The translations under genes and the position numbers were made by a program. Below, piece after piece: positions 17,271-19,462 of a DNA stretch of 19,733 nucleotides (positions are counted from its first letter, which is position 1; every line of letters begins with the position of its first letter). This DNA is from Escherichia coli (lineage in GTDB: Bacteria > Pseudomonadota > Gammaproteobacteria > Enterobacterales > Enterobacteriaceae): NCBI RefSeq assembly GCF_003334765.1, contig NZ_QOWT01000050.1, one strand, 5' to 3'. The notes beneath the pieces are model-generated. The model had not been told where the DNA came from. It was given only the letters and a program-made list of their open reading frames with translations, and did no database searches.

Positions 17271-18407
17271 TTATCTTAAGTTTGCCTTGAAAAATTGCTC
17301 AAATTTGGCAAATGGGATCTTACCCGCAACGTTGTCGTACAGATCAACATGGTTTGCCTCGGGGACAATCACTAACTCTTTCTCTTTGCTGCCGATTGCC
17401 TTAAAGGCATCTTCAGCAAAATAGCGTGAATGGGCTTTTTCACCGGTCACGATGAGTGTAGGGATAGTAACTTCATTAGCGTAACTCAGCAGCGGCATAT
17501 TCATAAATGACAGCGGCATGGTTGCATTCCAGGCACTGGTTGAGTTGACCGAACGCGCATGGAAACCACGCGGCATGCGGTAATAATCAAAGAACTCTTT
17601 CAATACCGGATTAGAATTCGCTGGCAAAGTTTCCGGTAAAATACGATCGGAAGCGGTGACGTTGCCCTTCTCATCAACGTAAATATCATGCCCGCCTGGC
17701 GCGAAAGCGCCATTTTCAGCATCCTTCCAGCGCTGCATGTTCAAATACTGCAATACGGCACGACGATCGGCAGTGGTATAGCGGTCTTTGCCATCGCCCA
17801 CGCCATGCCCCATTGCACGGCTCATGTCATACATCACGCTGCTCGCCACCGCCTTGACACGTGTGTCCATCGCGGCGTCGTTTAAGGCCATGCCACCCCA
17901 TCCGCAGATGCCGAGCAACCCGATACGGTTGCGATCCACCTCTTTTTGCAGGCCTAAGAAATCAACCGCCGCGCTGAAATCCTCGGTGTTGATATCCGGA
18001 GATGCGACGTTTCGCGGGTAGCCGCCGCTTTCCCCCGTGTATGAAGGGTCAAAAGCCAGAGTGACAAACCCCCGTTCAGCCAGCGTCTGCGCATACAGGC
18101 CACTGGATTGCTCTTTCACCGCCCCGAAGGGGCCACTAACAGCAATTGCTGCCATCTTGCGATCGCCACGATCCTTCGGTATATAGAGATCCCCGACTAA
18201 GGTGATCCCGTACCGGTTCGGAAAGGTCACCTTACGGTGATCAACTTTCGTGCTCTCAGCAAAAGTTTTATCCCATTTCTCGACCTGCGAAACGGGCGCG
18301 TTCGGATTGGTTGTATCAGCGTAACTCATATTTGTGACTCCACTTAATGATACGCATAACAGCATGGTGGATATCGCGGCTGTCAATTTTTGGGTGAAAG
18401 CAGTCAT
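17271..18407 (-). CDS. Secreted alpha/beta-fold hydrolase with Cys nucleophile motif (dienelactone-hydrolase-like)
   Basis: ORF track 17271..18422; start placed at MTAFTQKL... with GAGGGGG 7 nt upstream. N-terminal signal-peptide-like segment (hydrophobic core, then ...MSYA/DTT). G-x-C-x-G motif in LLGICGWGGMAL. Confidence 0.8.
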   Translation of the reverse strand: MTAFTQKLTAAISTMLLCVSLSGVTNMSYADTTNPNAPVSQVEKWDKTFAESTKVDHRKVTFPNRYGITLVGDLYIPKDRGDRKMAAIAVSGPFGAVKEQSSGLYAQTLAERGFVTLAFDPSYTGESGGYPRNVASPDINTEDFSAAVDFLGLQKEVDRNRIGLLGICGWGGMALNDAAMDTRVKAVASSVMYDMSRAMGHGVGDGKDRYTTADRRAVLQYLNMQRWKDAENGAFAPGGHDIYVDEKGNVTASDRILPETLPANSNPVLKEFFDYYRMPRGFHARSVNSTSAWNATMPLSFMNMPLLSYANEVTIPTLIVTGEKAHSRYFAEDAFKAIGSKEKELVIVPEANHVDLYDNVAGKIPFAKFEQFFKANLR

Positions 18408-18490
18408 CAAAATCCCCCTCATAAAATGTGCCAGATACTGGTTTCATACGGATAACACTGCTGTGCTTTGTTGCAACGCGCACATTATAG

Positions 18491-18509
18491 TTAGCATTAA
18501 TAGTGCTAA
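18491..18509. promoter_or_regulatory. LysR-type binding site candidate (TTAGCA-N7-TGCTAA dyad)
   Basis: Perfect 6-bp inverted arms in the divergent intergenic region between the hydrolase (start 18407) and the LysR gene (start 18575), as expected for LysR autoregulatory or target boxes. Confidence 0.5.
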
Positions 18510-18574
18510 TTAGAGGGTAAAAAATGCTAAGATTAATAACATATTGTTCTGAATTGTGATGCAGCAGGGGAAGG

Positions 18575-19462
18575 ATGATGGCGAAACGGGAAAACTATAA
18601 CGATCTCTATCTGTTTATGCAGGTCGTGCGAGAAGGGAGTTTTACCGCCGCCGCGCAGAGGCTTGGCCTGGCGCAGTCAGGAATTAGCCGTGCAGTGCGC
18701 GAGCTGGAAGAGCGACTGGGCGTGCAGCTTCTGGTACGCACCACGCGCAAGTTATCGCTCACCCATGCCGGCGAGTTACTCTATCGAAACGTCGAATCTG
18801 GATTTGACGCCTTAGATATGGGGCTTGCCACGCTGGCCCATTATCGCCATACACCATCGGGTACGGTCCGAATTAATGCGAGCCAGCACGCCATTGATAA
18901 AGTGCTGCTGCCGAAGCTGGCGGTGTTTAAACAACGATACCCGGATATTCGGCTGGAGCTCATCAGCGAAAGCCGGTTTGTCGATATTATTACTGAGCGC
19001 TTCGATGCCGGTATACGTCTGGGCTCGGAAGTGGATAGCGGTATGGTTGCGGTGCGCATTTCGCCCGATATGGAGATGGCTGTTGTCGGCACGCCCGGGC
19101 ACTTTCAGCGCTACGGATTTCCACAAACCCCCACCGATTTAGTAGGTCATCCCTGCATCGCTTACCAGTTCGGCGACGGCAGTCTGTATGCCTGGGAACT
19201 CAATCAGGACGGTAAAAAGATCACCCATCAGCCTCAGGGACAATGGGCCTTTGCTGACAGTTATATGGAAGCCAAAGCCGCAAGGCTAGGTCTGGGGCTG
19301 GCTTATGTTCCGGAGGAATTAGTGTCTGATGATATAGAACAGGGGGCGCTAATCAGAGTTTTGCAATGCTACAGCCAACGCCTGGAGGGTTCATATATCT
19401 ATTATCCGCACCGCAATGTGTCACCCGCCCTACGAGCGGTTATCGATACATTGAGAATTTAA
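18575..19462 (+). CDS. LysR-family transcriptional regulator
   Basis: 295 aa; N-terminal HTH ...LYLFMQVVREGSFTAAAQRLGLAQSGISRAVRELEERLGVQLLVRTTRKLSLTHAGE... and typical C-terminal substrate-binding domain length; divergent from the hydrolase. Confidence 0.9.
   Translation: MMAKRENYNDLYLFMQVVREGSFTAAAQRLGLAQSGISRAVRELEERLGVQLLVRTTRKLSLTHAGELLYRNVESGFDALDMGLATLAHYRHTPSGTVRINASQHAIDKVLLPKLAVFKQRYPDIRLELISESRFVDIITERFDAGIRLGSEVDSGMVAVRISPDMEMAVVGTPGHFQRYGFPQTPTDLVGHPCIAYQFGDGSLYAWELNQDGKKITHQPQGQWAFADSYMEAKAARLGLGLAYVPEELVSDDIEQGALIRVLQCYSQRLEGSYIYYPHRNVSPALRAVIDTLRI

Follow-up and report, generated by a model that had tools for sequence, protein, structure and literature searches.

A predicted exported cysteine-based α/β hydrolase with a divergent LysR-type regulator and an MFS transporter: an annotated accessory gene set of Escherichia coli

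The locus

We analysed one locus within a 19,733-nucleotide stretch of Escherichia coli DNA (contig NZ_QOWT01000050.1; hereafter, the window). It holds an ordinary accessory set of genes that is already annotated: a cysteine-based α/β hydrolase, predicted to be exported, a divergent LysR-type regulator and an MFS transporter. The hydrolase and the regulator each match an annotated E. coli gene with 100% identity. Listing of open reading frames recovered exactly the limits given for them in the original prediction, 17271..18422 on the minus strand (383 aa) and 18575..19462 on the plus strand (295 aa); RefSeq starts both genes at the second Met, at 18407 for the hydrolase and 18578 for the regulator. 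The MFS gene, which was absent from the original finding, is a conserved third member of the module. No NCBIfam model matched the hydrolase, the regulator or the MFS protein at its cut-off. The features are as follows.

15901..17094, minus strand: MFS transporter gene (RefSeq 'MFS transporter'), 12-TM, DHA1/NepI-like efflux type
17225..17255, minus strand: terminator-like hairpin (RNA fold)
17271..18407, minus strand: α/β hydrolase coding sequence, 378 aa, WP_024187030.1 (RefSeq)
17349..17351, minus strand: codon of His358 (long-ORF numbering), putative catalytic His (conservation and predicted structure)
17892..17912, minus strand: nucleophile elbow G-I-C-G-W-G-G, aa 171–177, with the Cys173 codon at 17904–17906
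18318..18407, minus strand: predicted signal peptide, residues 1–30, MTAFTQKLTAAISTMLLCVSLSGVTNMSYA (hydropathy and −3/−1 rule)
18413..18418, minus strand: Shine–Dalgarno sequence GGGGGA, 5 nt 5′ of the ATG at 18407 (sequence reading)
18484..18489, minus strand: predicted −10 hexamer TATAAT of the hydrolase promoter (conservation)
18491..18509, no strand: TTAGCA-N7-TGCTAA box, TTAGCATTAATAGTGCTAA, with perfect 6-bp arms
18525..18530, no strand: third TGCTAA hexamer, within the conserved block TGCTAAGATTAATA (sequence and conservation)
18536..18550, no strand: dyad ATAACA-N3-TGTTCT (conservation)
18578..19462, plus strand: LysR-type transcriptional regulator coding sequence, 294 aa, WP_001119031.1 (RefSeq, Pfam)

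The hydrolase: export signal, putative catalytic residues and family

The 383-aa frame originally described begins at an in-frame ATG further upstream, at 18422. We place the start at 18407 because a conserved GGAG/GGGG Shine–Dalgarno sequence lies 5–9 nt upstream of it, and this purine-rich element is kept in 10 relatives. An internal start at MSYAD, as in the 352-aa RefSeq protein of the O157 allele, was ruled out because the 26 upstream codons and the Shine–Dalgarno sequence are conserved. In some RefSeq entries of the O157 allele, the signal peptide is cut off.

The N terminus had been described as resembling a signal peptide, and sequence analysis bears this out by locating the n, h and c regions of a predicted Sec signal. 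It consists of MTAFTQK, LTAAISTMLLCVSLSGV and TNMSYA|D, with Lys7 in the n-region, an h-region (LTAAISTMLLCVSLSGV) of at least 12 residues and small residues at −3 and −1 of S-Y-A|D. The maximum hydropathy over 12 residues is 2.16, and signal peptidase I is predicted to cut at SYA|D, before Asp31, which would remove a 30-residue Sec-type signal. AF2 pLDDT is below 50 across residues 1–33. The signal sequence is kept across genera, and a crude sequence classifier assigned Sec-, lipobox- or Tat-like signals to 71 of the 80 relatives. We therefore predict export by a Sec-type signal. A lipoprotein reading of Cys23 was ruled out: the −1 residue is Leu, and this h-region Cys is not part of a lipobox because the O157 allele carries Phe instead.

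The proposal of an α/β hydrolase with a Cys nucleophile also stands, as both the structural model and the alignments place Cys173 at the nucleophile elbow and not outside it. The predicted fold has the central β-sheet of the superfamily, with the nucleophile on a sharp strand–turn–helix elbow (strand 157–167, Cys168 and helix 169–180 in the annotated numbering). The motif had been given as G-x-C-x-G; GICGWGG is indeed present at residues 171–177, but is strictly G-x-C-G-x-G-G because its fifth residue is Trp. Cys173 lines up with the catalytic Ser or Cys of hydrolases with solved structures; it matches the Ser of GLSMGG in PET46/8B4U and the Cys of GFCWGG in YsgA. Of 52 relatives, 50 keep this Cys and none replaces it by Ser. 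His358, which like Cys173 sits at the canonical position, is present in 51/52, in a motif, A-N-H-V-D-L-Y-D, that follows strand β8 (predicted strand 343–348, annotated numbering) and also occurs in YcjY. Another eight residues (K103, E104, Q105, D125, S132, D360, Y362 and D363) are invariant in the 52 sequences. Of the Cys–His–Asp triad that alignment had been expected to confirm, Cys173 and His358 could be assigned as the predicted catalytic residues, but not the acid: Ala330 occupies the canonical site after β7, and the candidates are E328 (acidic in 49/52), D199, D360 and D363.

Full-length homology, together with GAVKEQ, D-x-S-Y-x-G-E-S-G-G, the G-I-C elbow and N-H-x-D-L-Y-D, places the hydrolase by sequence in the PA2218/YcjY clade and not among the true dienelactone hydrolases. 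The earlier description as 'dienelactone-hydrolase-type' has to be given up, as the profile match is weak and partial and the closest structural neighbours are not dienelactone hydrolases. Pfam DLH (PF01738) matches only residues 109–194 (i-Evalue 0.0012, 18.9 bits), hhalign against YsgA aligns 113 columns of the N-terminal half only (probability 45.9%), and structural similarity to dienelactone hydrolases is not above that to generic esterases. Members of the DLH family (PF01738; ClcD and E. coli YsgA) have the same α/β-hydrolase fold and a Cys nucleophile that aligns with Cys173. Unlike them, the hydrolase, with a mature length of about 350 aa, carries a large lid insertion (about 115 residues in the predicted structure) and lacks both a chloroaromatic pathway context and a significant full-length profile match. 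We also rejected the quorum-quenching AHL lactonase UilS (NF047920; 67 bits against a cut-off of 400, residues 78–198 only), as well as BHET hydrolase and FrsA, to which NCBIfam matches are only partial.

Among the closest known systems is PA2218 of Pseudomonas aeruginosa (PDB 2HDW, a structural-genomics 'hypothetical protein'), which belongs to the same clade. PA2218 is probably a lipoprotein because it has a lipobox, LVGC, whereas the window hydrolase has a Sec/SPase I-type signal. YcjY (306 aa) differs in that it has neither a signal peptide nor the N-terminal WDKTF segment, its lid is partly missing, and its elbow is GICAGAG rather than GICGWGG. The structure 2HDW has been called 'not yet biochemically characterised' (PMC3790968), and in the literature on YcjY, PA2218, 2HDW, 5XB6 and DcsB we found no study of what the clade does. 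Of the structural relatives that have been characterised, the closest, at about 20% identity, are the fungal polyketide α/β hydrolases DcsB (7D78) and GrgF (6LZH). Both are polyketide-processing enzymes (PMC8902786), and GrgF has been described as a cysteine hydrolase (bioRxiv 10.1101/2020.12.16.421545). They are cytosolic and act on PKS-bound chains in biosynthetic clusters, whereas the window hydrolase is predicted to be exported and has no biosynthetic neighbours.

The regulator and the intergenic DNA

The divergent gene encodes a true LysR-type protein, as had been claimed, with HTH_1 (PF00126, 1.1e-23) and LysR_substrate (PF03466, 5.7e-36) domains. Its best NCBIfam match is YafC (197 bits against a cut-off of 470), and it aligns with PgrR (YcjZ) of E. 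coli K-12 over the full length (40% identity, E 4e-73). Sequence comparison identifies the regulator as a paralogue of PgrR and the hydrolase as a paralogue of YcjY. Orthology with PgrR was ruled out on the basis of this identity, a different target operon and no NCBIfam equivalog cut-off being reached. PgrR, which is annotated as a transcriptional repressor, controls ycjY-ymjDC-mpaA (PMC5934670). That K-12 locus (pgrR/ycjY-ymjD-ymjC-mpaA) carries mpaA and, unlike the locus studied here, has no MFS transporter.

By statistics alone, the TTAGCA-N7-TGCTAA box that the original prediction had singled out is not significant: the whole window contains 11 6-N7-6 repeats of this kind, and shuffles of the 170-bp spacer give such a repeat in 5% of cases at spacing 7 and in 30% at spacings 3–11. 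The dyad itself is real and conserved, as 10 other intergenic regions from as many other genera (Enterobacterales and Aeromonas) keep the arms (AGCA..TGCT core) and their spacing while the spacer sequence varies. Its supposed role is not supported. LysR-type regulators (LTTRs) canonically recognize a site at −65, whereas the box directly abuts the conserved TATAAT and, in the promoter predicted for the hydrolase, covers about −14 to −32; because its core is G-N11-C, it is not a T-N11-A motif. Judging from the sequence, the regulator may nevertheless bind it. The third TGCTAA hexamer lies 21 bp, or two helical turns, from the right arm of the box.

A candidate LysR motif of the T-N11-A type is a separate dyad at 18536–18550, of which the TGTTCT arm reads TGTTAT in relatives. 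It is centred at about −66 from the predicted hydrolase transcription start and overlaps the putative −10 of lysR; its ATAACAAT part does not change among Enterobacterales, unlike the partner arm, which varies. Analogy with established LTTR architecture suggests regulatory roles for this dyad. The predicted −10 hexamer of the hydrolase, TATAAT, is identical in 10/10 Enterobacterales sequences and reads TAGAAT in Aeromonas, and the −35 position is occupied by TAATTA, a weak match. This pattern points to a hydrolase promoter with a transcription start near 18477. A consensus promoter and terminator scan found nothing in the intergenic region; it missed this promoter because the −35 is weak, and our promoter calls therefore rest on conservation. 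We found no support for a hairpin in the conserved 5′ UTR block, as the pairing is absent from the O157/Kluyvera allele. Across positions 17100–18700, Rfam gave no riboswitch or leader family and only a sub-threshold match to NsiR4, over the terminator-like hairpin.

The divergent promoters of BenM/CatM, ClcR and CbnR set the established pattern for LTTRs, and the locus resembles them in its divergent regulator gene and in a conserved region of protected size (about 70 bp) with a distal dyad near −66 that fits T-N11-A and, closer to the predicted promoter, sites over a weak −35. It differs in that the strongest palindrome is promoter-proximal, with arms 7 bp apart (G-N11-C), and not distal. 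Such a palindrome over the −35 and spacer of the predicted promoter would suit a repressor as well as an activator.

A candidate three-gene cassette

The regulator and hydrolase had been regarded as a classic inducible catabolic pair. Neither the window nor 80 related loci were found to contain genes for catechol, maleylacetate or other catabolism, and the conserved partner is an efflux-type MFS transporter. An MFS homologue (44–82% identity) adjoins the hydrolase in 15 of these 80 loci at full length and in one more as a partial gene, including loci of α-proteobacteria, and a homologous LysR gene does so in 19. The synteny spans γ-proteobacteria and, in another gene order, α-proteobacteria, and the same LysR–hydrolase–MFS trio occurs in Klebsiella and on a Kosakonia plasmid. 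NepI is the best NCBIfam match of the transporter (275.6 bits against a cut-off of 584), followed by sugar efflux transporter and Cmx/CmrA; as all models fall below their cut-offs, we rejected NepI and other named efflux pumps and describe the protein only in general terms as MFS.

Between the hydrolase and the MFS gene, an 11-bp GC-rich stem is followed by UUUU (RNA fold −23.1 kcal/mol, z = −3.06 against shuffles). The consensus scan did not call this hairpin because it has only four U residues, but the fold suggests that it may act as a terminator, and co-transcription of the two genes is therefore possibly absent in this allele.

We consider it probable that the three genes form an accessory cassette on an E. 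coli genomic island, made up of a PgrR-like LysR regulator, a divergent exported Cys hydrolase that belongs to the PA2218/YcjY clade and, after the hydrolase gene, that of an efflux-type MFS transporter. A LysR tetramer would occupy the conserved region of about 70 bp at 18484–18553, in which the T-N11-A dyad near −66 also lies over the promoter of the regulator itself and three TGCTAA-type hexamers extend to −14; in response to a small molecule, the regulator would switch on a promoter that has a perfect −10 and a weak −35. The Sec system would export the hydrolase, with cleavage after SYA. Once in the periplasm, the enzyme would use Cys173, activated by His358, to attack an ester, lactone, thioester or amide via a thioester acyl-enzyme intermediate, and the MFS protein would carry substrate or product over the inner membrane, possibly in a detoxification or transport role. 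Several points count against this explanation: a free thiol is unusual in the oxidising periplasm, the acid of the triad could not be assigned, the hairpin may separate transcription of the hydrolase and MFS genes, the strongest palindrome would suit a repressor equally well, and in other phyla the hydrolase gene adjoins cyclophilin-like, cupin, aldo/keto reductase and acetyltransferase genes.

The same parts could work in the opposite sense, with the regulator repressing like its paralogue PgrR, the palindrome as an operator on the −35 and spacer, and induction by derepression. We regard this as plausible, if on balance the lesser possibility. The palindrome sits at about −14 to −32, directly against the conserved TATAAT, the regulator is 40% identical to the annotated repressor of ycjY-ymjDC-mpaA, and the promoters of the hydrolase and of that operon have TCTAAT[C/T]A-N16-CTATA[A/G]T in common. 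However, the weak −35 (TAATTA) is like that of activator-dependent LTTR promoters, the T-N11-A dyad lies at the canonical −66, and many LTTRs hold a promoter-proximal site when uninduced yet activate.

It is unlikely that the enzyme is a periplasmic amidase, peptidase or esterase acting on peptidoglycan-derived or other peptides, as an exported counterpart of the YcjY–MpaA murein-peptide recycling operon. Both genes are paralogous with pgrR/ycjY, and in Klebsiella pneumoniae mpaA, ycjG and a gene for a peptide-binding protein are found four genes away from the trio, but YcjY itself has no demonstrated activity, neither the window nor most of the 80 loci have adjacent murein-recycling genes, and the conserved partner is an efflux-type MFS rather than a peptide permease.

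We find it very improbable that the locus is an inducible catabolic pair in which a periplasmic ClcD-type dienelactone hydrolase, with its LysR activator, serves the use of an aromatic or lactone substrate: the Cys nucleophile aligned with that of YsgA, the weak Pfam match (E 1.2e-3) and the conserved dyad between divergent genes favour it, but that match is marginal and partial (as is hhalign, at 46% for the N-terminal half only), classical dienelactone hydrolases lack such a lid, and catabolic genes are missing from the window and the related loci. An acyltransferase or condensing enzyme with Cys as acyl carrier, like fungal GrgF, Fma-AT or PHA synthases, has a similarly slim chance: DcsB and GrgF are structurally close and the GXCXG motif of YcjY once led to its proposal as a candidate cPHB polymerase (PMC3709699), but the periplasm, to which the protein is predicted to be exported, has no CoA or ACP thioesters, there are no PKS or PHA genes nearby in the window or related loci, and the fungal enzymes are only about 20% identical.

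For the cassette that we favour, the consequences for E. coli biology are small, as the genes are annotated, accessory and of a generic type. The enzyme does not belong under the dienelactone hydrolases in annotation, and the functional unit takes in the MFS transporter. If its substrate were found, a family that is very widespread and has solved structures would gain a function, as would K-12 YcjY by extension. PA2218-type proteins are 50–60% identical across Proteobacteria, Bacteroidota, Firmicutes, Campylobacterota, Melainabacteria and a Methanobacterium, with predicted export by Sec or Tat or as lipoproteins, and their nucleophile position is strictly Cys. It is conceivable, though rather doubtful, that they are pan-bacterial exported thiol hydrolases with one specific, widespread substrate (for instance a reactive lactone or ester, or an electrophilic natural product); if so, the proteobacterial trio would be a mobile resistance cassette for sensing, hydrolysis and efflux on islands and plasmids.

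A probable cysteine hydrolase of the PA2218/YcjY clade

The genes considered here are already annotated and form a standard divergent unit of a LysR-type transcriptional regulator (LTTR). The ORF listing gives two divergent frames whose limits match the original prediction exactly, and an MFS transporter gene follows the hydrolase.

17271..18422, minus strand: hydrolase ORF, 383 aa (basis of the numbering of Cys173 and His358)
Start 18407, minus strand: annotated 'alpha/beta hydrolase', WP_024187030.1, 378 aa
18575..19462, plus strand: LysR ORF, 295 aa
Start 18578, plus strand: annotated 'LysR family transcriptional regulator', WP_001119031.1
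15901-17094, minus strand: MFS gene, 397 aa

The most likely reading, which we consider probable, is that a ligand-sensing LTTR controls an exported Cys–His hydrolase functionally coupled to the MFS transporter. The LTTR would respond to its ligand by controlling the enzyme. In the periplasm, the substrate of the enzyme would be an ester, lactone, thioester or amide, and the reaction would pass through a thioester acyl-enzyme.

A sequence search of solved structures matched the hydrolase to PA2218 of P. aeruginosa (2HDW; E 2.2e-121), with the elbow GICGWGG (residues 171-177; Cys173 codon, 17904-17906) in both, and to E. coli YcjY (5XB6; E 1.5e-40). Beyond these lie solely remote serine hydrolases, with Cys173 opposite their GxSxG serine (for example, GLSMGG of PET46, 8B4U). 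An AlphaFold model built from 52 relatives (pLDDT 88.5) places the cysteine at a strand–Cys–helix elbow. The cysteine also aligns with that of YsgA, an E. coli protein of the dienelactone hydrolase (DLH) family, in an hhalign match of 46% probability confined to the N-terminal half. Pfam returned only PETase-like (7e-7) and DLH (1.2e-3, across 86 residues) matches. Structure-search scores were 48.1 for 2HDW, 39.4 for YcjY, 31.5 for DcsB, 31.4 for 7QJM and 30.1 for GrgF, with generic esterases and lipases at 26 or below and DLH-named structures at 21.5-24.4. From the sequence, structure and profile searches, therefore, the predicted cysteine at the nucleophile elbow stands, whereas the assignment to the dienelactone hydrolase type falls.

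The protein is a member of the PA2218/YcjY clade. Among enzymes that have been studied, the nearest to this clade are alpha/beta hydrolases from fungi that process polyketides, and one of them, GrgF, has been called a cysteine hydrolase (bioRxiv 10.1101/2020.12.16.421545); that the window enzyme is instead an acyltransferase seems very unlikely. An orthologue structure has been on record since 2006; 2HDW has been called not biochemically characterised (PMC3790968), and a literature search on 5XB6 found no paper.

Of 52 diverse relatives, 50 retain Cys173 (the other two have Gly, and none has Ser) and 51 retain His358; K103-E104-Q105, D125, S132, D360, Y362 and D363 are invariant. Ala330 occupies the canonical acid site after beta-7; as for candidate acids, 49 of the relatives have an acidic residue at E328 and 46 of the 52 an Asp at D199. 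The sole other cysteine of the protein, C23, lies in the predicted signal peptide.

Predicted export

The signal-peptide-like N-terminus of the original prediction was borne out: the annotated protein begins with a charged n-region (MTAFTQK), followed by a 17-residue hydrophobic core and S-Y-A ahead of Asp31, and the O157:H7 allele carries the same signal. The model shows disorder over residues 1-33. The start at 18407 is supported by a Shine–Dalgarno sequence conserved in 10 genera. A lipobox reading was rejected because the O157 allele has Phe in place of the Cys. In RefSeq, the O157-type hydrolase (WP_001303808.1 and other entries of 352 aa; locus L002, 6001-7158) starts at the internal Met of MSYAD and so lacks the signal peptide that is otherwise conserved; for the window allele, the annotation covers all 378 aa.

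A crude sequence classifier assigned Sec-like signals to about 45 of 80 related loci, lipoboxes to 12 (PA2218 likewise has one, LVGC), twin-arginine motifs to about 12-14, in alpha-proteobacteria, and no signal to nine (Firmicutes, a Methanobacterium and an Acinetobacter). Predicted export is thus a trait of the family. Enterobacterales members have Sec-type signals, Pseudomonas and Bacteroidota members lipoboxes, and alpha-proteobacterial and some other members twin-arginine signals (RRxLLK; loci L013, L015, L023, L029, L031, L036, L058, L067 and L077). The remaining curiosity is this family, which combines 50-60% identity over many phyla and a strict cysteine with, as predicted, three export routes. 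One signal-less homologue, 55% identical, comes from a methanogen metagenome-assembled genome (L071, Methanobacterium sp. UBA44); its match coordinates within the locus, 4001-4951, are identical to those in Sedimentibacter (L064), which points either to a recent transfer between domains or to contamination of the bin.

The regulator and the intergenic DNA

HTH_1 and LysR_substrate domains confirm the plus-strand protein as a LysR regulator; it reached no curated NCBIfam equivalog (top, YafC, 197 bits versus a cut-off of 470). K-12 PgrR (YcjZ) is 40% identical to it over the full length and its gene is divergent to ycjY; by sequence, therefore, the window pair is a paralogue of pgrR/ycjY. The regulation of ycjY-ymjDC-mpaA is assigned to PgrR in PMC5934670.

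18491-18509: inverted repeat (the box), TTAGCATTAATAGTGCTAA
18484-18489, minus strand: TATAAT, invariant in Enterobacterales
18525-18530: third TGCTAA, 21 bp beyond the box
18536-18550: T-N11-A dyad, ATAACA-N3-TGTTAT (window, TGTTCT)

The box alone is not significant: the window holds 11 such perfect 6-N7-6 repeats, and shuffled sequence yields one with a probability of 5% at spacing 7, or of 30% if spacings 3-11 are allowed. An AT-rich prophage-remnant stretch (6409-9232) accounts for eight of these 11. When the intergenic region of the window was aligned with those of the O157 allele, Aeromonas and eight further Enterobacterales, a single block, 18484-18553 and some 70 bp long, proved conserved; outside it, the lysR side is variable and the hydrolase 5′ UTR only partly conserved. 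The box arms are conserved (core AGCA...TGCT) at fixed spacing, and the central 6-7 bases vary freely. If TATAAT is the hydrolase -10, as we infer, the -35 would be a weak TAATTA, the box would lie at about -14 to -32 and the dyad, which overlaps the putative lysR -10, would centre near -66. Together, these positions would give the usual LTTR layout. The box proposed originally thus has conserved arms but, by this promoter, would be promoter-proximal rather than the classical LTTR recognition site.

At that position, the box could serve equally well in repression, as an operator, or in activation. For the regulatory step, the same parts working by repression, as for PgrR, are a real if less probable alternative. 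TCTAAT[C/T]A-N16-CTATA[A/G]T is common to the K-12 ycjY promoter region and the predicted promoter of the window hydrolase.

The putative lysR extended -10 (18545-18554) reads TGTTCTGAAT in the window versus TGTTATAAAT in 10 of 10 aligned relatives, two substitutions that might weaken regulator expression. The predicted 70-nt hydrolase leader holds a conserved block, AAAGCACnGCAGyGTTGTCCGT (about 18444-18466, minus strand), in which the AGCAC half-site of the box recurs; this block has no Rfam match or conserved hairpin.

Gene neighbourhood and genomic setting

The unit comprises three genes: lysR, hydrolase and MFS. The MFS protein is NepI/sugar-efflux/Cmx-like, under every NCBIfam cut-off. 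In 80 loci from one-genome-per-species data, a full-length homologous LysR (38-89% identity) adjoins the hydrolase in 19 and an MFS homologue (44-82% identity) in about 16, including loci of Psychrobacter, Acinetobacter and Luteimonas; the order is lysR-MFS-hydrolase in Sphingomonas, Novosphingobium, Bosea and Brevundimonas. A Kosakonia plasmid carries the trio at 95.5% protein identity. The window allele has a hairpin between hydrolase and MFS (17229-17255; -23.1 kcal/mol, z -3.06), followed by UUUU.

In K. pneumoniae, the trio lies four genes from mpaA/ycjG. That the enzyme acts on murein peptides in the periplasm, as a parallel with ycjY-mpaA would suggest, is improbable. Neighbours in other phyla are 'detoxification-flavoured' and unspecific: cyclophilin-like proteins (20 loci), sugar-O-acetyltransferase-like proteins (16), cupins (15), aldo/keto reductases (12), AraC regulators and carboxymuconolactone-decarboxylase/cupin fusions. 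No catabolic pathway adjoins the hydrolase in the window or the 80 loci, and the MFS gene is a third member; the inducible catabolic pair of DLH type originally proposed, for all its divergent LysR gene and elbow cysteine, can hardly be upheld.

Although labelled 'plasmid p2', the K. pneumoniae record (L085; NZ_CP076548.1, linear, 221 kb) is probably a chromosome fragment, since genes of the core chromosome occur on it (tpx, ycjG, mpaA and one for a peptide-binding protein); its LysR-hydrolase-MFS-aldo/keto reductase set occupies the neighbourhood in which K-12 has ycjY/pgrR.

Several complete E. coli chromosomes are 100% identical to window 17200-19500, and the allele is accessory, present at no less than 95% identity in 104 of 5426 complete genomes. 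A copy of 78% nucleotide identity occupies another site, the pao/ykgR region, in 828 of the 5426 (adjoining paoABCD/ykgR in O157:H7), and some genomes have both. The cassette was also found in three places on E. coli plasmids, and PLSDB holds homologues in 278 plasmid records, chiefly Pantoea, Sinorhizobium and Rhizobium. The cassette belongs, in the window, to a mosaic island: it has CP4-like prophage remnants on one side and, on the other, a YeeP-like GTPase/Ag43 block that adjoins the kps capsule locus. Window 1-6200 (window coordinate = locus - 801) is a pectin/oligogalacturonide-type cluster, encoding a beta-helix protein, an MFS transporter, a cupin, gluconate 5-dehydrogenase (KduD-like), oligogalacturonate lyase and an RpiB/LacAB isomerase. 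Next to this cluster come CP4-like remnants with several pseudogenes, among them YfjJ/YagK, zinc-ribbon proteins, an inovirus Gp2-type protein and Hha.
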